Source: a virus. Taken from it: a stretch of DNA of 34,690 nt. The stretch lies in UHGV virus genome UHGV-0268713. One strand, 5' to 3'. A program made the translations under genes and the position numbers. The notes beneath the pieces are model-generated. The model was not told the DNA's origin, searched no databases, and was given only the letters and a program-made list of their open reading frames with translations. Shown in pieces: positions 6,050 to 34,375 of this stretch; positions within the stretch are counted from its first letter, which is position 1, and the number at the start of each line of letters is the position of its first letter.

Positions 6050-6202
6050 TCAGCCCTCCCATATCTCGTTATCGTTGGCCACATCTCGAGCTTCTTTGCT
6101 GACGAAAGCCCACTTAATACCTTCCTGTAAGGTGCGGAACTTCCAGCTCATGAATCCGCATGCAGTAACGCAGTACCAACCGTTGATGATTTTCCACTGC
6201 AT
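6050..6202 (-). CDS. Small hydrophobic protein (50 aa), first gene of the leftward early operon
   Basis: Translated by hand as MQWKIINGWYCVTACGFMSWKFRTLQEGIKWAFVSKEARDVANDNEIWEG; its stop is 2 nt before the next start. Below the 60-aa ORF-track cutoff. Confidence 0.35.
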   Translation of the reverse strand: MQWKIINGWYCVTACGFMSWKFRTLQEGIKWAFVSKEARDVANDNEIWEG

Positions 6203-6208
6203 AACTTG

Positions 6209-6298
6209 TTACCTCGGTTTGTTACCGTTGAGGTAATGATTATGCGTATCTGGTTTGATGTCAATAGATATGAGTTAAAAAAATTACCCGTTAGGTAA
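6209..6298. promoter_or_regulatory. OL-like operator/promoter region
   Basis: Two perfect TTACC-N5-GGTAA palindromes (6222-6236, 6284-6298) plus a TTACC half-site at 6209-6213, between the repressor terminator and the first leftward early gene. Confidence 0.55.
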
Positions 6299-6307
6299 TC
6301 GAGTAGG

Positions 6308-6335
6308 CAATAAAAAAGCCGCCAGAAGGCGGCTT
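6308..6335 (-). terminator. Rho-independent terminator downstream of the repressor gene
   Basis: AAGCCGCC-AGAA-GGCGGCTT hairpin (6316-6335) followed on the minus strand by TTTTTTATT. Confidence 0.6.
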
Positions 6336-6355
6336 ACTTACTGAAAAATATGATT

Positions 6356-6940
6356 TTATTGTTTGTTTTTTTCGTTCTGGTTGATGACAAATTCAATGTA
6401 ACTTTCGATCTTTGCTTTCTCGGTTTCGGGTAACAATGCGTAGCGCGAGCGATCATAGTTAATGGTCGCAGGGTCGTGCGGGTGAATCAGTAATTCATAG
6501 CCGTGACGCCCGAATGCGGATGCAACATTCTCCAGGGTGGAAATGGAAACGCTGACCTCATTGTTTAACAGACGGCTGATTGTCACCTGGGCGACGCCGG
6601 ATGCGCGGTGTAGTTTTCCCTGCGTTGAAAGGTCGCGGCTTTCGCTCATCCAGCGTTCCAGGTTGTGAGCCGCCAGCTGACCTATATCGCTCGGGCCGAC
6701 AGGCTGAAAACCCTCCTGAGAAAGCGAGCGATCAATATCAAGCCAGTTACGGGGTTTATTGGCGGCAGCTTCAATTTTTCGTGCAACCTGGTCGCCGATA
6801 ACCTTCTTGCCAAGAGCCCAGCGGTTTACCAGATTTGCCTGAGTTCCAAGTTTTTCTGCCATCCGCGTCTGAACACCATTGAATTCACGGTCGATCAAGT
6901 CGTTGAGATTTTGCCTGCGGACGTCCTGGATACTTTTCAT
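6356..6940 (-). CDS. Phage immunity repressor, double XRE-type HTH, no LexA-like peptidase domain
   Basis: 194 aa; two HTH-like segments (QTRMAEKLGTQANLVNRWALGKK... and GVAQVTISRLLNNEVSVSISTLENVASAFG); divergent from the Cro-like gene with operators between them. Confidence 0.8.
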   Translation of the reverse strand: MKSIQDVRRQNLNDLIDREFNGVQTRMAEKLGTQANLVNRWALGKKVIGDQVARKIEAAANKPRNWLDIDRSLSQEGFQPVGPSDIGQLAAHNLERWMSESRDLSTQGKLHRASGVAQVTISRLLNNEVSVSISTLENVASAFGRHGYELLIHPHDPATINYDRSRYALLPETEKAKIESYIEFVINQNEKNKQ

Positions 6941-6995
6941 TTTCTGGAAAATCGCCTCATATATGAATCAGTAGATGATTCAATTTAAAGCAATA

Positions 6996-7058
6996 TTACC
7001 CAACAGGTAAATGCACCTCATAGGTAACTATCCTTGATTTTTGTTACCTTATGGGTGA
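6996..7058. promoter_or_regulatory. OR-like tripartite operator region between repressor and Cro-like gene
   Basis: One perfect TTACCCAACAGGTAA (6996-7010) and two imperfect copies (GCACC-N5-GGTAA at 7013-7027; TTACC-N5-GGTGA at 7044-7058). A TTGATT -35-like hexamer sits at 7035-7040. Confidence 0.55.
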
Positions 7059-7094
7059 ATATTTATTATCTGAAATAAATATCAGGCAATAGCT

Positions 7095-7325
7095 ATGAGC
7101 GATAACGGACATTTCGATTTCAAAAAGCACTGGCTTGCACTTACTCCGGATGAGCGTGAAGCCTTCGCACAGGAAGCCGGAACGACGAGTCACTATATCC
7201 AGACTCACTTAACAGGTAAGCGCAAAATGCCAGGTAAGGTATTGATGAATGGGCTTTTTAAAGCCTGTAAAACAAGACAATGGCTGCGCTCAAAAGCAGA
7301 ACTGGCATACTTCTTCTACTCATGA
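7095..7325 (+). CDS. Cro-like small HTH regulator
   Basis: 76 aa, divergent from the repressor; LTPDEREAFAQEAGTTSHYIQTHLTGKRKMP is HTH-like. Confidence 0.6.
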   Translation: MSDNGHFDFKKHWLALTPDEREAFAQEAGTTSHYIQTHLTGKRKMPGKVLMNGLFKACKTRQWLRSKAELAYFFYS

Positions 7326-7347
7326 TATCCAGCCACAACCCTCTGTA

Positions 7348-7370
7348 GACCGCCATCCGGCGGTCTTTTC
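7348..7370 (+). terminator. Rho-independent terminator after the Cro-like gene
   Basis: GACCGCC-ATCC-GGCGGTC followed by TTTTC. Confidence 0.6.
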
Positions 7371-7380
7371 ATATCTATTC

Positions 7381-7395
7381 GTACCTCAAAGGTAA
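7381..7395. promoter_or_regulatory. Imperfect operator-like site
   Basis: GTACCTCAAAGGTAA (14 of 15 to motif) just downstream of the terminator and upstream of the replication genes, in an AT-rich stretch. Confidence 0.3.
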
Positions 7396-7473
7396 TAAAA
7401 AACCAAATCTGGTTGATCAAATTTTCCAATTGTGCAAAATAGCCAATATCAATAACAAAAAGGGGCGGAAAAA

Positions 7474-7686
7474 TTGAAGATAGTAACCAGAATGGAGGCC
7501 GCAAAAGCCGGGTTAAATCGCTATTTCACAGGAAAGCGGTGCCGTCACGGCCATCTCTCTGAAAGGTATGTTCTGAACGGAACATGTGTTGAATGTGCAA
7601 TGAATAGCGCCAACCGCCATCGTAATGAATTTGCTTGTGCACTAAAGAGTGCAAGAGGGGAAACCTATGGCAAGCAGCTGGATTAA
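7474..7686 (+). CDS. Hypothetical Cys/His-rich small protein
   Basis: 70-aa ORF with TTG start (alternative ATG at 7492); CRHGH...CVEC suggests a zinc-binding motif; function unknown. Confidence 0.4.
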   Translation: MKIVTRMEAAKAGLNRYFTGKRCRHGHLSERYVLNGTCVECAMNSANRHRNEFACALKSARGETYGKQLD

Positions 7687-8497
7687 GGTTGAAGTTATCA
7701 CTCCTGATAAACCTGAAATTTTTCAGATAGCAGAAATTCTGGGTATTGATCCAGATGCTGTTCTTGGAAAGCTGGTTCGTATATGGGCATGGGCTGACCA
7801 GCAAACAATAGACGGTAACGCTGGCAGCGTTACAAAAGGAGTACTTGATAGACTCGCTTTTATTACAGGATTTGCTGACGCCCTCATTAGCGTCGGATGG
7901 CTTGCTTATCATGACGGCAAACTAATTCTTCCAAACTTTGAGCGACACAATGGAGAATCATCGAAAAAACGTGCACTTACGAATAGAAGAGTGGCAGAGC
8001 ATCGAAAACGAGTAACGCAAAAAGTAACGCCAACAGCGTTACAAAAGGAGTTACCAGAGGAAGAGGAAGAGGAAGATATATATAAAACCCCACACATAGC
8101 GCACGTGCGCGAGGGTGCTCCGACCAGTGAAGCGAACAGTACGCCGTTGCAGGTGGCAGAACCTGAATTTCTGGATGGCCTGAGTGAACCCATCGGGAAA
8201 TTTCCGATGACAGATGGCTGGCTGCCGTCGCCAGATTTTCGGCGGCGTGCTGCGCTGTGGGGAACGGCCCTGCCGGAACCGGAATTTACACCTGCTGAAC
8301 TTGCTGCATTCCGGGATTACTGGATGGCTGAGGGCAAAGTGTTCACGCAGGTTCAGTGGGAACAAAAATTCGCCAGGCACGTAAATCATATCAGGGGAAA
8401 ATCAAAAAATGCCGGGAAAAGCGATGAGCTTGACTGGAATAACACTGACTGGATAGAAGGGGTGTGGGATGAAATCAACTCCAGAACTTCTCAATGA
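7667..8497 (+). CDS. Replication initiation protein (lambda O functional analog, DnaT-like C-terminal region)
   Basis: ATG at 7667 with an AGAGGGG Shine-Dalgarno; sits immediately upstream of the P-like gene; contains internal palindromic iteron-like repeats and an acidic EEEEEED linker. Confidence 0.65.
   Translation: MASSWIKVEVITPDKPEIFQIAEILGIDPDAVLGKLVRIWAWADQQTIDGNAGSVTKGVLDRLAFITGFADALISVGWLAYHDGKLILPNFERHNGESSKKRALTNRRVAEHRKRVTQKVTPTALQKELPEEEEEEDIYKTPHIAHVREGAPTSEANSTPLQVAEPEFLDGLSEPIGKFPMTDGWLPSPDFRRRAALWGTALPEPEFTPAELAAFRDYWMAEGKVFTQVQWEQKFARHVNHIRGKSKNAGKSDELDWNNTDWIEGVWDEINSRTSQ
7815..8086. repeat. Iteron-like palindromes and AT-rich tract (candidate ori) inside the replication initiator gene
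   Basis: GTAACGC-N5-GCGTTAC palindromes at 7815-7833 and 8024-8042; an extra GTAACGC at 8012-8018; 18-bp exact direct repeat CAGCGTTACAAAAGGAGT at 7825-7842 and 8033-8050; (GAGGAA)x3 at 8056-8073 then ATATATATAAAA at 8075-8086. Confidence 0.4.
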
Positions 8498-9245
8498 GTA
8501 CGATCGCTTACGTGAGCATGGTGTTGCTGTGCATGAAGAGCGGCGTGACAGCAATGGCAAAAAGGAGCAGGTTGCTAGAATTTTCAATGAACTATTTGTC
8601 CAGTTACAGGCTGCATTTCCTGCAAGCGTTTCGACCATAAGGGAGCAGAACAAACTTAATGAATTCCGTAAGCAATGGATGCTTGCGTTTCTGGAGAATG
8701 GGATCACTACAATGGAACAGGTTAACGCTGGTATGCGCCACGCCCGCGCCAGTGAATCTCCGTTCTGGCCGTCGCCAGGGCAATTTATCAAGTGGTGTAA
8801 AGACAGCAAGATGGTTCTTGGCGTCACCATTGACGATGTGATGGCGGAGTTTCACCGGTACAGCAAGGAAAAAAGTTTATATCCTGGTGGTCCCGAAAGA
8901 TTCCCGTGGCGGCATCCGGTTATGTACTGGGTCGTATGTGATACCCGCCGTGCAATGTATCAGCGCCAGCTTAGCGAGATTGAGGTTGAGAAACATGCGC
9001 GCAGGCTGCTTGATGATTGGGCGAAAAAGGTGGCTTCCGGACAGCAGATACCCGATCCGGTGATCAGCATACAGGCAAAGCCAGAGCCCATGAGTACGCC
9101 TCCGGACACAGGGAGAGACGTTTACCATCCACCAGGGCGAAGTTTCGGGTGCATGCCTAACGCCGCCACCCTGGGGGGAATAACACCGGCGCAGTGGCTG
9201 ATGGAGGAATACAGGCGGGGAAAGGCGTCAGGATTTATCAAGTAA
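8469..9245 (+). CDS. Replication protein P-like (DnaB helicase loader)
   Basis: 258 aa; NGITTMEQVNAGMR and PSPGQF match conserved lambda P segments as recalled. Confidence 0.8.
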   Translation: MKSTPELLNEYDRLREHGVAVHEERRDSNGKKEQVARIFNELFVQLQAAFPASVSTIREQNKLNEFRKQWMLAFLENGITTMEQVNAGMRHARASESPFWPSPGQFIKWCKDSKMVLGVTIDDVMAEFHRYSKEKSLYPGGPERFPWRHPVMYWVVCDTRRAMYQRQLSEIEVEKHARRLLDDWAKKVASGQQIPDPVISIQAKPEPMSTPPDTGRDVYHPPGRSFGCMPNAATLGGITPAQWLMEEYRRGKASGFIK

Positions 9246-9277
9246 TACCAGCGCGATAGCGCATTTTTTTACGTCTC

Positions 9278-9359
9278 TATAATTACCTGTGAGGTAATAA
9301 ATTATTCTAAAATCTATTGATTTCGTGTCTTATGTGGTTTTTAATTACCTTAGGGGTAA
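9278..9359. promoter_or_regulatory. Promoter region with two perfect operator motifs
   Basis: TTACCTGTGAGGTAA (9283-9297), overlapped by a TATAAT hexamer at 9278-9283, and TTACCTTAGGGGTAA (9345-9359), which overlaps the ribosome-binding site of the gene starting at 9363. TTGATT at 9319-9324. Confidence 0.5.
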
Positions 9360-9362
9360 ATC

Positions 9363-9707
9363 ATGAGAAAACAGATACAGGCTCTTGGTCGACTCAAAAC
9401 AGGCCAGATGAACAAAACAGAATCTGCGTATTGCCAGCACCTTGAGCTGCGTAAACGTGCAGGAGAAATCGTCTGGTATCGATTTGAGGGTATCAAGCTG
9501 CGGTTAGCTGACAACACGTTCTATACGCCCGATTTTGCTGTGATGCTCGCCACCGGCGAGATGGAACTGCACGAAGTGAAAGGTTTCTGGACCGACGACG
9601 CCAGGGTGAAAACCAAAGTCGCCGCAGATCAGTATCCGTTCCGAATCATCGGGGTAACGGTTAAACCAAAGAAAGCAGGTGGTGGCTGGAACATCGAAGA
9701 GTTCTGA
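9363..9707 (+). CDS. Hypothetical protein with PD-(D/E)XK-like motif (possible nuclease)
   Basis: 114 aa; YTPDF ... ELHEVKG resembles a D...E-x-K nuclease core (inference). Confidence 0.55.
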   Translation: MRKQIQALGRLKTGQMNKTESAYCQHLELRKRAGEIVWYRFEGIKLRLADNTFYTPDFAVMLATGEMELHEVKGFWTDDARVKTKVAADQYPFRIIGVTVKPKKAGGGWNIEEF

Positions 9708-9768
9708 ATCGACGATCTTTTTAGTTATCAATGTAATCAATAAGTTATGTGGATAAGCGAGGGTAAAG

Positions 9769-10353
9769 ATGAAACCGAGTTATGAAGAACTTGAAGAGCA
9801 ACTGAACAGATCTCGACGTCTCTGTGATGCTGCTCTGGCTAATGAGAGGGCATGGGAAACAGCCATGATGCAGGCATGCGGTGAAGACGGTCCGAAGTCA
9901 GTAGCTGATAAGTTTGCGGAACTTGAAGCCAGATGCGCGGCGCTGGCGGCGGAGAATGCACTTGCTCGTAAAGCTGTTCAGGCATTCTGTGAGGTTGTTG
10001 GTGACAACACTGAGATTATCTCCGAGTTGGTTGGGCAAGATGGCGTTCTGGTTATTTTGAAGGCCATGAAGGCAACAGGAAATATGTCAGCCACCGACGC
10101 TTTCCTGGCTGAAATACGTGCGGAGGCACGCAACGAGGGGATTAACTACACCGCAAGCCGTCTTGCTGCTGCGTTCAATCACGGATTTATCAATAAGTCT
10201 TTGCGTGAAGTTTTCGACGTTACACGCATGATTTTGTCAGCGAAAGAAGAGTTGGCTAATGAACCGCATCCGATTGATGGCCTGTCTGGTGAATATGCGG
10301 AGAAATCCCTTGAAGAATGGGCGGAACAGATTCGCAAAGGAGGCAACCAGTGA
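9769..10353 (+). CDS. Hypothetical protein, Ala-rich and predicted coiled-coil
   Basis: 194-aa ORF, tightly packed in the early-right cluster. Confidence 0.55.
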   Translation: MKPSYEELEEQLNRSRRLCDAALANERAWETAMMQACGEDGPKSVADKFAELEARCAALAAENALARKAVQAFCEVVGDNTEIISELVGQDGVLVILKAMKATGNMSATDAFLAEIRAEARNEGINYTASRLAAAFNHGFINKSLREVFDVTRMILSAKEELANEPHPIDGLSGEYAEKSLEEWAEQIRKGGNQ

Positions 10354-10844
10354 GCGAAATTAATTACCAGGCACTACGTGAGGCGGCAGAACGTGCAACT
10401 CCAGCAATGGAACGCCTGTTAATGTTGCCAGTTGATGATGATTTGTTAAGTGAACAGGAACTTAAGGATTACGGTGTGGATATTGATGCGCTCAACGCCT
10501 TCAAATTTCTGACCGGACCAGAAACCGTGCTGGCACTACTGGATGAACGGGAAGCAGACAAAAAGCGCATTGCAGAACTGGAAGCTCGGGAAATAAAACC
10601 AGCCCAAGGTGAAGTTCTTGTCGTTGTTTCTGGTTTTACTGGTTGCGGGAAAAGCGCCATCGCCGGGGAAATAGAAACCGCGATGAAGGCTATTGGTGTA
10701 CCGGTTCAGTGGACTAATGGCGATGCGGAAAAGCGCATGACAGGAGCTGACTGGCTGACAGCGATTGAGATGTACAAACCAACAGTGCGCATCGTGGAAG
10801 TTAATGTGCCACGCGCCGCTGGCATTCGCATCAAAGGAGAGTGA
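10350..10844 (+). CDS. Hypothetical protein (possibly Ead/Ea22-like)
   Basis: GTG start at 10350 overlapping the upstream stop (GTGA) with an AAAGGAGG Shine-Dalgarno; MSEINYQALREAAERATP N-terminus. Confidence 0.5.
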   Translation: MSEINYQALREAAERATPAMERLLMLPVDDDLLSEQELKDYGVDIDALNAFKFLTGPETVLALLDEREADKKRIAELEAREIKPAQGEVLVVVSGFTGCGKSAIAGEIETAMKAIGVPVQWTNGDAEKRMTGADWLTAIEMYKPTVRIVEVNVPRAAGIRIKGE

Positions 10845-12047: not shown

Positions 12048-12321
12048 CCTGCAACTTGCCGTCAAAGGTGAATACTTCGATGCCATGATTCGCGGGGAGA
12101 AAACGGAAGAGTATCGCCTGTGTAATGACTACTGGAATAAGCGAATTATGTTCCGGGAGTATGACCGCCTGATTATCACAAAGGGATATCCGAAGCGCGA
12201 CGATTCCAGCCGCAGAATTGACGTCCCGTATGACGGATATGAAATCAAGACAATCACACATCCGCACTTCGGCGATAAACCGGTAAATGTGTTCGCGATA
12301 AAGGTGAATATTGATGGCTAA
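12040..12321 (+). CDS. Hypothetical protein
   Basis: 93-aa ORF overlapping its neighbours by a few nt. Confidence 0.55.
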   Translation: MANLQLAVKGEYFDAMIRGEKTEEYRLCNDYWNKRIMFREYDRLIITKGYPKRDDSSRRIDVPYDGYEIKTITHPHFGDKPVNVFAIKVNIDG

Positions 12322-12652
12322 ATCAGCAGCAGAGCGCAAAGCCGCTCAGAGAGCCAGACAAGCTGCATCTGGTGTGCGTAAGCTGGAAATTGTGCTTGAT
12401 GCTCAGGAAATTGAAATGCTGGAGAGTAACTGTGCCACGCGTCGCCCCGGGCGTGCGCCTTACGAATTTGGTGAGTATATAGCGTTACTGATCCGCCAGG
12501 ATGATGCACGCGTGCGCGGGCGTATAAAATCGATCAGCAGAAAACGTTGCGGTAAGTGCGGCGAGAGAGTTCCTGTGAATTCATGCCCGTGTAATGGTGA
12601 CTCGCAATGCTGGGTGACCAAAGGCTGGCATGAAACGAAATTAATAGTGTGA
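12314..12652 (+). CDS. Hypothetical basic, Cys-rich protein
   Basis: ATG at 12314 with an AAGGTGAA Shine-Dalgarno; C-terminal CGKCGERVPVNSCPCNGDSQC cluster; its stop codon lies inside the GTGACATGTCAC palindrome. Confidence 0.5.
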   Translation: MAKSAAERKAAQRARQAASGVRKLEIVLDAQEIEMLESNCATRRPGRAPYEFGEYIALLIRQDDARVRGRIKSISRKRCGKCGERVPVNSCPCNGDSQCWVTKGWHETKLIV

Positions 12653-12882: not shown

Positions 12883-12924
12883 ATACTGCCGCCAACTATG
12901 GCGGCTTTATTTTGCATGGTACTA

Positions 12925-12957
12925 TTACCACAACGGTAACTATTACCACGGTGGTTA
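12925..12957. promoter_or_regulatory. Tandem operator motifs immediately upstream of terS
   Basis: Perfect TTACCACAACGGTAA (12925-12939) and imperfect TTACC-N5-GGTTA (12943-12957), the latter ending at the terS start codon. Confidence 0.45.
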
Positions 12958-13553
12958 TGATGCCTGCTGAACCTAAAACCTATAAACGCAAATCAACGCA
13001 ATTTAAGCCACTAACAGCAATGCAGGAGGCTTATTGCCAGTCATACATCAAAACGCCTGAAAATCAGACTCAGGCTGCGATTAACGCAGGATTCTCCCCA
13101 AATACAGCGGCAGTTAAAGCCAGTGTCATGATGCGCGATGAACGCATTCAGAAACGGATTGCCGAGCTGATGGAAGAGCGCAACAAACGAATGCGCGTCA
13201 GTGCTGATTACGTTCTCATGCGCCTGGTGGAGATCGACCAGATGGACGTGATCGACATCCTCAACGACGATGGGAGCCTTAAGCCAATCCGCGAGTGGCC
13301 GAAAATCTGGCGCACTACGCTTAGTGGCTTTGATCTGTCATCGACCATCATGAACATGAACGAGGATTCGATAGAGACAATCCTCAAAAAAATTAAATGG
13401 CCTGACAAGGTGAAGAACCTTGAGCTGATTGGTAAGCATGTTGATGTCAACGCGTTCAAAGAACGTCTGGATGTTAATGTGAATGTGACAATTGCTGATC
13501 GCATAGCAGCAGCCAGGAAGCGACTCAAAGAACGTCAGGATGGTAATCAGTGA
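12957..13553 (+). CDS. Terminase small subunit
   Basis: ATG at 12957 (the ORF track's upstream extension encodes a low-complexity TITTTVTITT stretch); HTH-like TAMQEAYCQSYIKTPENQTQAAINAGFSP; directly upstream of the large subunit. Confidence 0.7.
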   Translation: MMPAEPKTYKRKSTQFKPLTAMQEAYCQSYIKTPENQTQAAINAGFSPNTAAVKASVMMRDERIQKRIAELMEERNKRMRVSADYVLMRLVEIDQMDVIDILNDDGSLKPIREWPKIWRTTLSGFDLSSTIMNMNEDSIETILKKIKWPDKVKNLELIGKHVDVNAFKERLDVNVNVTIADRIAAARKRLKERQDGNQ

Positions 13554-15115: not shown

Positions 15116-15448
15116 TTATTTCGGTAGATTGTGTTTGGCATTCGACTCGTCTATCACGTAACGCATTGCAGTTCGACCGAGATTACCAGGATCTTCATGC
15201 AGACTCACTCGTGCCTTTAGGAGCACACATTCAGCCTTGACATAGTTTGCTGGAATTATTCCTACCTCGGCATTTTTAAATGCCTCCTTCACCGCCTCAC
15301 CGTTGTACTGACCGCCAAGCAACTCTGTACATGTCAGGTTGTTATGGATAATTGCAAGGAGATCTTTAATCTCTTCACGCAGGTTTACAATCGCCATCGC
15401 GGCATTGATAGCTGCGGCATAGCGCTCAGCTGCAGTCTTCTCTTTCAT
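15116..15448 (-). CDS. Hypothetical protein, reverse-oriented accessory gene between terminase and portal
   Basis: ATG at 15448 with an AAGGTGA Shine-Dalgarno; 110 aa; opposite strand to the flanking late genes; preceded by hairpins. Confidence 0.55.
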   Translation of the reverse strand: MKEKTAAERYAAAINAAMAIVNLREEIKDLLAIIHNNLTCTELLGGQYNGEAVKEAFKNAEVGIIPANYVKAECVLLKARVSLHEDPGNLGRTAMRYVIDESNAKHNLPK

Positions 15449-15648
15449 GATTTTCACCTTAAAAAAATGCCCGGACGAACCGGGCGAACTGGAAGCAATG
15501 AGTTATGCCTTCCGTGGCTGTACTGGTTTACAGCATGAAGTCATCGCAATGGCGTCCTGCTGTAAAAAGGGCGGTGATAGCCCTTCAAGGGAAACCATCA
15601 CCGCCAAGCCCCTGGAACTTCTGGCATCACGGTCCTTAGGCGTGATTC

Positions 15649-16047: not shown

Positions 16048-16062
16048 TTACCTGAAAGGTAA
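16048..16062. promoter_or_regulatory. Perfect operator motif upstream of the portal region
   Basis: TTACCTGAAAGGTAA, about 90 bp upstream of the ORF at 16153 and about 310 bp upstream of the portal gene. Confidence 0.45.
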
Positions 16063-16152
16063 TAATTCGTGCGTTAAATGTCAACTATCTACGATAAATA
16101 AATCATATGTGGTTAAATTGGTAATAATTAAATTGCGTACGGAGTCATTGAT

Positions 16153-32557: not shown

Positions 32558-33502
32558 ATGACGAGTATAGCAACAGCGGTATCTACTATCAACGTGCCAT
32601 TCCACGGCGCAGAACTTTATGTTGTCAATCACAACGGAGAACCGTACACCCCAATGAAACCTATCGTTGAAGGCATGGGTATGGATTGGGCTTCACAGTT
32701 TACGAAAATGAAGCAGCGGTTTAAAACCTGCATTGTGAAAATCACAATGCAGCTTCCTGGGGATGAACAGCGCCGTGAGATTATTTGTTTGGCACTTCGC
32801 AAACTTGCTGGCTGGTTGCAAACCATCAGCCCTAACAAAGTCCGCCCTGAAATCCGCGACAAGGTAATCCAGTATCAGGAAGAGTGTGACGATGTGCTCT
32901 ACGAGTACTGGACTAAAGGCCATGTGGTTAACCCACGCAAAGCTAAAAAGGCGTTGCCGGGTAAAATAACCACTGAACAGCAGGAAGCCATTAAACAACT
33001 CGTCATGAGTCGCGGTCAGTCTCTACCAAAAGAAAAACAGGCTAAGGCGATGATCACCATGTGGTCGTCACTGAAATCTCATTTTGGCTGTTCGTACAAA
33101 GAAATTGGTGAAGATCAATTTGCCGAAGCGTTGTCTCTTGTTGCTCGGGTTCCGCTTGAAGGGGAGTATCTCCCTGCTGGATCTGCATCAGAGAATGATG
33201 AAGTGGCAGTCAAGATGTTAGATGCGCTTCGTGAGGCAATTAAAACACAGACAAAATGTTATGGTTATCCACTGAAGCCCGGCTACCGCAGCCTGATTCA
33301 TTCGCCGTCTGGTGTTCTCGGCCTGACGGAGAACTCACTGCTGATGAATTTGCTGAACCAGTTACAGGAAGACGGGCATGACGTATCGGGCGCGGCGGCG
33401 GAACTGACCACCATGTTCTGCTACATCGTCGGTGTGAGTAAATGCCTGCGTGATATCCAGACCCACGCGGAGTACATCAACGACAAGGCAGGGTTCTTCT
33501 GA
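32558..33502 (+). CDS. Antirepressor paralog 2 (AntA-like N-terminal domain plus KilAC-type C-terminal domain)
   Basis: 314 aa; its C-terminal ~75 aa are identical in protein to antirepressor 1; sits downstream of the arc-like gene as in P22 immI. Confidence 0.85.
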   Translation: MTSIATAVSTINVPFHGAELYVVNHNGEPYTPMKPIVEGMGMDWASQFTKMKQRFKTCIVKITMQLPGDEQRREIICLALRKLAGWLQTISPNKVRPEIRDKVIQYQEECDDVLYEYWTKGHVVNPRKAKKALPGKITTEQQEAIKQLVMSRGQSLPKEKQAKAMITMWSSLKSHFGCSYKEIGEDQFAEALSLVARVPLEGEYLPAGSASENDEVAVKMLDALREAIKTQTKCYGYPLKPGYRSLIHSPSGVLGLTENSLLMNLLNQLQEDGHDVSGAAAELTTMFCYIVGVSKCLRDIQTHAEYINDKAGFF

Positions 33503-33807: not shown

Positions 33808-33830
33808 ACAAAAAAGCCCGCGCTGCGGGC
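33808..33830 (-). terminator. Rho-independent terminator for the accessory operon
   Basis: GCCCGC-GCT-GCGGGC hairpin (33816-33830) followed on the minus strand by TTTTTTGT. Confidence 0.55.
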
Positions 33831-34375
33831 TATTCCTTCCATTTATCAGAAAAAAGATCTTCTTCTAAAGGCATTGGTTCTGTTTTTGTTTTCTCAAAGA
33901 ATTGATAACTGATAGTGATTGCTGCCTCTTTAAACTCTTCTTGCTCAGTTATGTTGTGAGCATCTGCGTCAACAAAAAACATAACCAGCGCATCACGATT
34001 GTGATTTACCGAATAAACTAAAAAGCAATCACTTGTTGGTATGCATTTTACTTGTACAGACGCTATATTTTTCCATGCATCCCAAGATGATTTTTTACCA
34101 GTGTGTTTTTTATCACTATCTTCTGGAATATAGTCTTGGTTATCGACATGAGTATGCCTGACATTTAGTTTAAGCATTTCTGTCGGACGAGCAAATGCAG
34201 CATCTTTACCAAGAGATGGATGGTATCCCGTTTTCCAATACTGGGTAAAGGCATCAGATACTTTCTTCAGCTCAAGATCAGATGCACAAAGGGCCGAGAA
34301 ATTTTGCGTATGCAATACTCGACCCTTATATCTGACAATTTGATTTTTATCATTCTGCGACGCAGACGAACTCAT
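33830..34375 (-). CDS. Hypothetical protein (181 aa), AT-rich accessory gene
   Basis: ATG at 34375 with an AAGGA Shine-Dalgarno; low GC; no confidently recognised domain. Weak resemblance of HTH and LVY...H segments to YafO-type toxins is unverified recall. Confidence 0.55.
   Translation of the reverse strand: MSSSASQNDKNQIVRYKGRVLHTQNFSALCASDLELKKVSDAFTQYWKTGYHPSLGKDAAFARPTEMLKLNVRHTHVDNQDYIPEDSDKKHTGKKSSWDAWKNIASVQVKCIPTSDCFLVYSVNHNRDALVMFFVDADAHNITEQEEFKEAAITISYQFFEKTKTEPMPLEEDLFSDKWKE

Follow-up and report, generated by a model that had tools for sequence, protein, structure and literature searches.

A conserved operator pair and a candidate promoter downstream of the replication genes in an epsilon15-like phage

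Phage and gene order

We analyzed a stretch of viral DNA of 34,690 nucleotides (UHGV-0268713), referred to here as the window, which is the genome of an epsilon15/phiV10-like temperate podophage of E. coli, genus Uetakevirus. From immunity through replication (6300-10400), it shares 97-99% identity with Escherichia phages vB_EcoP_ZX5, HEMP4, TL-2011b and phiV10. Genes of interest in this region are as follows.

6356-6940, minus strand: repressor gene, encoding a homologue of SPC32H Rep (Pfam HTH_3)
7095-7325, plus strand: Cro-like gene (PHROG 35)
7474-7686, plus strand: small PHROG-1081 gene
ending at 8497, plus strand: DnaT-like gene
8469-9245, plus strand: lambda-P-like replication gene (Pfam PF06992, 1.7e-55), which closes the upstream unit
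9363-9707, plus strand: DUF1064 / Holliday-junction-resolvase-like gene (Pfam PF06356; PHROG 190, 7e-43), which opens the downstream unit

The lambda-P-like and DUF1064 genes are separated by a gap of 117 bp, the subject of this analysis. On the 3' side of the DUF1064 gene is a nin-like gene run, the last member of which encodes a PHROG-536 'transcriptional regulator' (12311-12652) and is followed by terS.

Over residues 1-190, the repressor aligns with the Rep of Salmonella phage SPC32H, for which a crystal structure is available (PDB 5D50 chain A, E = 4e-42), with 42% identity overall and ∼55% over the N-terminal 60 residues. The tetramerization domain of Rep has been compared to those of DNA-looping regulators (PMC9986798), and SPC32H Rep is inactivated by an antirepressor (PMC9638917). 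A gene for a P22 Ant-like antirepressor (P22_AR_N, 314 aa, Pfam 9.7e-45) is present on the plus strand of the window at 32558-33502.

Operator palindromes in the window

The palindrome TTACC-N5-GGTAA, with at most one mismatch, occurs 12 times in the window, compared to 0.47 copies expected, and 0 of 100 shuffled sequences reached 12. All of these copies are intergenic. In ZX5, a close relative with an annotated genome, 14/14 sites lie inside the 8.8% of the sequence that is intergenic. The 12 sites in the window, and one two-mismatch copy in OR, are listed below.

136-150: operator TTACCTTAAAGGTAT upstream of int, ∼45 bp 5' of the integrase ORF (193-1443)
6222-6236 and 6284-6298: OL operators, 62 bp apart
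6996-7010, 7013-7027 (two mismatches) and 7044-7058: OR operators
7381-7395: degenerate operator GTACCTCAAAGGTAA after the Cro-like gene, one mismatch to the motif
9283-9297: operator 1 (distal), TTACCTGTGAGGTAA, exact match to the motif
9345-9359: operator 2 (proximal), TTACCTTAGGGGTAA, exact match to the motif
12925-12939 and 12943-12957 (one mismatch): operators ahead of terS
16048-16062: operator ahead of the portal operon
34590-34604: operator near the end of the window

Promoters were scored with a simple sigma-70 PWM, built on consensus frequencies; the corresponding background, taken as the best score per random 120-nt window, has a mean of 5.6. By this measure, PL (TTGACA-17-AATCAT, 6264 to 6236, minus strand) scores 11.3 and is bracketed by the OL operators, while PR (TTGTTA-17-TATTAT, 7041-7069, plus strand) scores 10.6 and overlaps the OR palindromes. 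Because the palindromes flank the repressor gene and overlap both PL and PR, we refer to them as immunity operators. SPC32H contains equivalent OL, OR and internal sites. The TTACC/GGTAA arms are identical in every relative examined, including phages of Escherichia, Salmonella, Klebsiella and Enterobacter. The repressors themselves are only ∼42% identical across these Escherichia, Salmonella, Klebsiella and Enterobacter phages, yet the operator arms are the same. Cro-like proteins are ∼76% identical across the genus, and the Cro-like protein may bind the same operators besides Rep.

The operator upstream of int has a GGTAT mismatch that is also seen at the equivalent position of epsilon15 (26882) and ZX5 (8026). 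This variant may be conserved through its position in the attP/int promoter region.

Two operators and a hairpin in the 117-bp gap

Besides the two operators, the gap contains a terminator-like hairpin and elements resembling a promoter.

9251-9270, plus strand: terminator-like element, consisting of the hairpin GCGC-GATA-GCGC (9251-9262) and a T7 run (9264-9270)
9317-9322, plus strand: -35-like TTGATT, inside a conserved CTATTGA element (9314-9322)
9340-9345, plus strand: -10-like TTTAAT, separated from the -35 by a 17-nt spacer and sharing its last T with the start of operator 2

Both internal sites conform to the definition of the operator (a 15-17-bp palindrome with TTACC/GGTAA arms and a free 5-nt center), and operator 1 has the extended 17-bp form ATTACC-N5-GGTAAT (9282-9298). 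Measured center to center, the two are 62 bp apart, which corresponds to about six helical turns and hence would place both operators on the same face of the DNA. The spacer between them is AT-rich (31% GC). According to the initial annotation, a TATAAT hexamer at 9278-9283 overlaps operator 1, and operator 2 covers the ribosome-binding site of the gene at 9363. Both statements are correct: operator 1 begins with the last T of the hexamer, and the SD-like sequence AGGGG (9352-9356) lies within operator 2, which ends 3 nt ahead of the ATG. Operator 2 also overlaps the candidate -10 and the predicted transcription start (∼9352). Taken together with the sites around the repressor gene, the motif makes it very likely that the internal sites are Rep (immunity) operators.

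The hairpin has a predicted folding energy of -7.4 kcal/mol (z = -2.2), and its 4-bp stem is below the 5-pair rule of the terminator scan. Its counterpart in phiV10 is annotated as a rho-independent terminator. Given the short stem, we regard the element as a partial terminator at best. Termination here may be weak, with read-through from upstream dominating expression of the downstream genes.

Conservation of the module among relatives

Relatives were retrieved from IMG/VR in two scans. The first used the operator pair itself as the pattern and yielded 67 unique relatives. Contigs with such operator pairs, ∼40 kb in length, numbered at least 120; most of them carry one pair at OL and another at the internal locus, ∼3.1 kb away, and 62 bp is the commonest spacing. 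Conservation of the operator arms in this set is circular, because the set was retrieved by the operator pattern. In the second scan the operators were left out, and we searched for the anchor GCGCRTTTTTTTAC followed by a gap of 39-43 nt and CTATTGA, which gave 104 unique modules. In these operator-independent relatives, operator 1 is exact in 103/104, operator 2 is exact in 102/104, and the spacing is 62 bp in 104/104. Positional entropy is 0.01 bits in the operator arms, compared to 1.45 and 1.07 bits in the centers of operators 1 and 2, respectively. The center of operator 2 is purine-rich in the relatives, doubling as a Shine-Dalgarno sequence, and the 5 nt ahead of this operator show an entropy of 0.37 bits. 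Conservation extends to the hairpin. The sequence GCGC-N4-GCGC-(A/G)T7AC is invariant or nearly so in the 67 operator-retrieved relatives; part of this element is the anchor of the second scan, and the stem columns outside the anchor are near-invariant in the 104 modules.

In a BLAST search with positions 9000-9720, epsilon15 and several Salmonella phages match over the intergenic part only (query 250-366), and the flanking genes of these phages are different. An ATG is found 3 nt past operator 2 in most relatives, also where the gene differs, as in epsilon15, in which it is RuvC-like. The same 62-bp operator pair is present in epsilon15, SPC32H, phiV10 and ZX5, as well as in Klebsiella phage ST512-KPC3phi13.3 and Enterobacter phage BUCT554.

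Candidate promoters between the P-like and DUF1064 genes

The initial annotation suggests an internal promoter with the TATAAT at 9278-9283 as its -10 and a start near 9290. In this reading, operator 1 would lie over the start, and operator 2 would add a further block downstream, around the ribosome-binding site. In favor of this assignment, the hexamer is a perfect -10 and the sole plus-strand copy in the window, where TATAAT is rarer than expected by chance (4 copies on both strands versus 14.9 expected, with at least 4 in every shuffle). Its last T is shared with the operator, as at PL (AATCAT/TACC) and ahead of terS (TGgTACTAT/TACC), and 56/67 relatives have A at position 2 of the hexamer. 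Against it, there is no -35 (the best partners, ATAGCG or GATAGC, fall inside the hairpin) and no TG, and the PWM score of 5.1 compares to 5.6 for the mean of the background. In the 104 relatives, the hexamer's five free bases (1.16 bits) are as variable as the operator centers, and TATAAT itself occupies this position in only 3/104. In the Salmonella group the hexamer is GTGAAT or ATGAAT, position 2 being T. By itself, TATAAT was not found to be significant as a promoter signal in the window. These observations argue that the hexamer is probably not the main -10, and we consider a promoter of this configuration unlikely.

It is plausible that the promoter core lies instead between the two operators. 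The candidate TTGATT-17-TTTAAT matches the consensus at 4/6 positions of the -35 and 5/6 of the -10, the latter having T in place of the near-essential A at position 2. Its PWM score, 8.2, is the best on the plus strand of the intergenic region, a value attained by ∼12% of random 120-nt windows; a stricter consensus scan returned no plus-strand promoter at this locus. Among the 67 operator-retrieved relatives, the top plus-strand promoter is found at the same offset in 58, the median PWM score is 10.1, and TTGA of the -35 is invariant. In the set of 104 this invariance arises by construction, since TTGA is part of the search anchor. Variants of the -35 in the relatives are TTGATT, TTGAAA, TTGATA and TTGAAT. 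When the spacer is taken as 18 nt, the -10 reads TAAATT in 48/104 relatives and TTAATT in 52/104, the window being among the latter. Transcription from this promoter would start at ∼9352, and hence the leader would be just 10-11 nt, with the SD at its extreme 5' end. A minor possibility is a promoter with a -35 at ∼9276 and a -10 (TAAATT) at 9298, an arrangement like that of PR, with an operator (here operator 1) within the spacer. Relatives conserve this -10, but only some of those in the E. coli group have the -35.

In the literature searched, we found no transcription-start or RNA-seq paper on the epsilon15-like group. Four promoters were predicted in the paper describing ZX5, the text of which gives no operator or promoter coordinates.

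The internal module resembles the terminator-OL-PL module

Over ∼115 columns, the internal module aligns without gaps to the module comprising the terminator, OL and PL (6197-6336, minus strand), in epsilon15 as well as in the window. The order of elements common to the two is a hairpin and T-run, 12-13 nt, a distal operator (A-TTACC-N5-GGTAA-T), 16 nt, CTATTGA and then, 17 nt after the -35, a -10-like hexamer whose last T opens the proximal operator (ATTACC-N5-GGTAA). The CTATTGA heptamer also holds the -35 of PL (TTGACA). This gapless alignment makes the internal module an apparent paralogue of PL, and the collinearity is the strongest argument that we are dealing with a promoter cassette rather than stray sites.

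The two copies have the same 62-bp operator spacing and differ in the quality of the promoter. PL has TTGACA and an A at position 2 of the -10 (PWM 11.3), whereas the internal copy has TTGATT and TTTAAT (PWM 8.2). The leader of PL is ∼27-34 nt, whereas that of the internal copy would be ∼10 nt.

The junction after the Cro-like gene

A related arrangement is seen farther upstream, where the initial annotation noted a terminator after the Cro-like gene followed by the operator-like site at 7381-7395.

7347-7370, plus strand: intrinsic terminator after the Cro-like gene (stem 7347-7366 plus T-run), 8-bp stem
7413-7440, plus strand: promoter-like TTGATC-N16-CAAAAT (PWM 8.1), ahead of the gene at 7474 and the replication genes

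Our analysis agrees on both counts. The stem has a predicted folding energy of -15 kcal/mol (z = -4.9) and is annotated as a terminator in phiV10. The site differs from the motif at one position, and in 29 aligned relatives its right arm is conserved and its left arm degenerate. The sequence GGTTGATC-N16/17-(C/G/T)AA(A/T)AT, in which the -35 region reads GGTTGAT(C/A), is kept in 29/29 of these relatives. The element at 7413-7440 has an upstream (distal-type) operator only, with none over its -10.

At the junctions after the Cro-like gene and after the P-like gene alike, a terminator or terminator-like element is followed by an operator and a TTGAT-type -35. On this basis, the early-right region seems to fall into three units that would open, past such an element, with an operator and a -35 of this type. 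The idea of an internal, repressor-controlled promoter put forward in the initial annotation is therefore retained in part: the operators are genuine, the geometry is that of a repressor-controlled promoter, and the early-right region is interrupted at 7347-7395 and 9251-9359, but the role of TATAAT as the -10 is not supported.

Other operator-associated sequences in the window

Ahead of terS, a terminator (12888-12905) is followed by an extended -10, TGgTACTAT (12917-12925), whose last T opens the operator at 12925-12939. The second operator of this pair (12943-12957) contains the Shine-Dalgarno sequence of terS, the ATG of which is at 12960. The motif TGnTA(C/G)TAT, with a variable n, is conserved in all but one of 22 unique relatives. 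With an extended -10 abutting the operator, the late operon looks as though it is directly gated by the repressor.

In the region 16048-16084, the operator at 16048-16062 overlaps the -10 of a leftward promoter, TTGACA-17-TACCTT, which has the best PWM score of the window (12.0) and is aimed at a minus-strand ORF (15116-15457) between terL and the portal operon. Near the end of the window, in the region 33830-34632, the operator at 34590-34604 abuts the leftward promoter TTGCAG-17-TACTAT. Downstream of this operator on the minus strand are a 59-aa ORF (34350-34529) and a 190-aa YafO_toxin-like ORF (33830-34402; Pfam 1.2e-5), which may form a repressor-controlled toxin-antitoxin-like pair. The 59-aa ORF had no match to the SPC32H Ant chain or any other PDB sequence.

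Comparison with known systems

The closest annotated counterpart is in epsilon15 (GenBank AY150271.2). The intergenic region of the window matches epsilon15 at 35875-35989 by BLAST, and that record has a protein_bind feature, 'repressor; lysogeny' (35906-35922), which is directly homologous to operator 1. Comparable protein_bind features are annotated in epsilon15 before terS, the portal operon and the tailspike gene, and at OL. The two phages share the palindrome, (A)TTACC-N5-GGTAA(T), and its location where the replication genes give way to the next block, although the flanking genes are DnaT-like and RuvC-like in epsilon15 and P-like and DUF1064 in the window. We counted 15 copies of the motif in epsilon15. 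Of the two internal sites, its record includes only the first; the second (35969-35983), an exact match 62 bp from the first, is unannotated, and no promoter is annotated there. Because a counterpart is already annotated in epsilon15, we regard the internal module as ordinary phage immunity wiring. The present analysis contributes a second site, strictly paired with the first at 62 bp, the apparent paralogy to the PL cassette, and a likely promoter core that lies away from TATAAT.

At the protein level, the nearest known system is the Rep/Ant immunity system of SPC32H (PDB 5D50/5D4Z), the repressor of which is homologous to that of the window. Direct control of several transcription units, beyond PL and PR, by one immunity repressor is known elsewhere. 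In P1, operators for C1 are dispersed around the genome, and N15 has CB sites outside its immunity region. The proteins and operators of these phages are unrelated to those described here: P1 operators are asymmetric 17-mers, whereas the sites in the window are palindromic, often paired at 17-18 or 62 bp, and located after terminators. In mycobacteriophage L5, gp71 binds many stoperators in short intergenic regions, asymmetric and orientation-dependent sites at which elongation is blocked away from promoters. The sites in the window are likewise intergenic, but they are symmetric and located on or beside promoter-like elements just after terminators. We rejected L5-type stoperators as an explanation of the internal sites, which are perfect palindromes situated after terminator-like and over promoter-like elements.

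Interpretation of the internal module

We favor the view, with a probability of roughly 0.55, that the 117-bp gap is a conserved regulatory cassette of epsilon15-like phages, containing a weak sigma-70 promoter between Rep operators. According to this model, the hairpin and T7 run (9251-9270) would act as at least a partial stop for transcription coming from the replication genes. In the lysogen, Rep would occupy both operators and keep the promoter off. The proximal operator would mask the -10, the start at ∼9352 and the DNA of the ribosome-binding site, and the distal operator would be located at ∼-62. Binding would probably be cooperative or bridging, as proposed here on the basis of the fixed 62-bp spacing; the AT-rich spacer and the likeness of the Rep tetramerization domain to looping regulators (PMC9986798) fit such a mode. 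Once Rep is inactivated, the promoter would drive the block that runs from DUF1064 to the PHROG-536 regulator (12311-12652), without depending on transcription reading through from PR. Inactivation of SPC32H Rep by the antirepressor was reportedly described by Kim & Ryu in 2013. It is from the sequence that we infer Rep binding, promoter activity, cooperativity and termination at the internal module.

Alternatively, the internal sites could serve without any promoter, as auxiliary repressor sites that block residual read-through in the lysogen or as anchors for long-range bridging to OR and OL via the tetrameric repressor. The borderline promoter scores in the window fit this explanation, as does the location of operator 2 on the ribosome-binding-site/ATG region rather than beside a strong -10, and dispersed repressor sites that block elongation are known in mycobacteriophage L5. 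However, without a promoter, neither the invariance of CTATTGA/-35 nor the conservation of TwAAT at a fixed 17-nt spacing between the operators would be explained. It would also be at odds with the collinearity between the module and a bona fide promoter module, PL, and the sites follow a terminator-like element, so that little transcription would be left for a roadblock to act upon. We judge this explanation rather improbable, though worth keeping in mind. A promoter could also point leftward (AAGACA-16-TAGAAT, 9331 to 9304), giving rise to RNA antisense to the last part of the P gene. This sequence scores 9/12 matches in the consensus scan and 7.1 by PWM, a score that is within background, and the corresponding sequence of epsilon15 and SPC32H has no usable -35 or -10, making a leftward promoter very improbable.

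A further alternative operates at the level of RNA, with operator 1 pairing with operator 2 in the read-through transcript and sequestering the ribosome-binding site of the DUF1064 gene. Positions 9283-9365 do fold with operator 1 paired to operator 2 (-21 kcal/mol, z = -3.8), but such pairing is trivial for two palindromes with the same arms. In the variable centers, where complementarity would be informative, there are 2.13 pairs, compared to 2.13 with shuffled partners. An Rfam search returned only a sub-threshold match to the plant snoRNA snoR12 (25.8 bits versus a gathering score of 39). We rejected the RNA helix because the centers show no complementarity beyond chance and the Rfam match is a chance one, and see hardly any likelihood that it regulates the DUF1064 gene.

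A broader reading extends the promoter-cassette model to the whole phage. Tentatively, and with some doubt on our part, one tetrameric Rep might run the entire program through at least seven terminator-insulated units, with operator-abutted promoters replacing lambda-style antitermination, and with the two DNA-binding pairs of a single tetramer bridging operator pairs at fixed spacings of 62 or 17-18 bp. The internal module would then have arisen by duplication of the PL cassette and double as a joint for mosaic recombination. The units counted here are PL, PR, post-cro, internal, terS/late, the portal region and the accessory/toxin-like region, in addition to the site near int.

Implications for epsilon15-like phages

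The cassette is not a new kind of system, and one of its two sites is already part of the epsilon15 annotation. As an annotation landmark, it can be recognized by the series hairpin plus T7, operator, CTATTGA, operator, ATG. An unusual mode of binding DNA in trans has been proposed for the SPC32H Rep tetramer, and operators in strict 62-bp pairing lend themselves to testing it. Should the internal promoter prove real, the post-replication genes, including the putative regulator just before terS, would be switched on directly by loss of the repressor. In that case, both timing and immunity would differ from a model of read-through from PR in prophages that are widespread in E. coli, Salmonella and Klebsiella.
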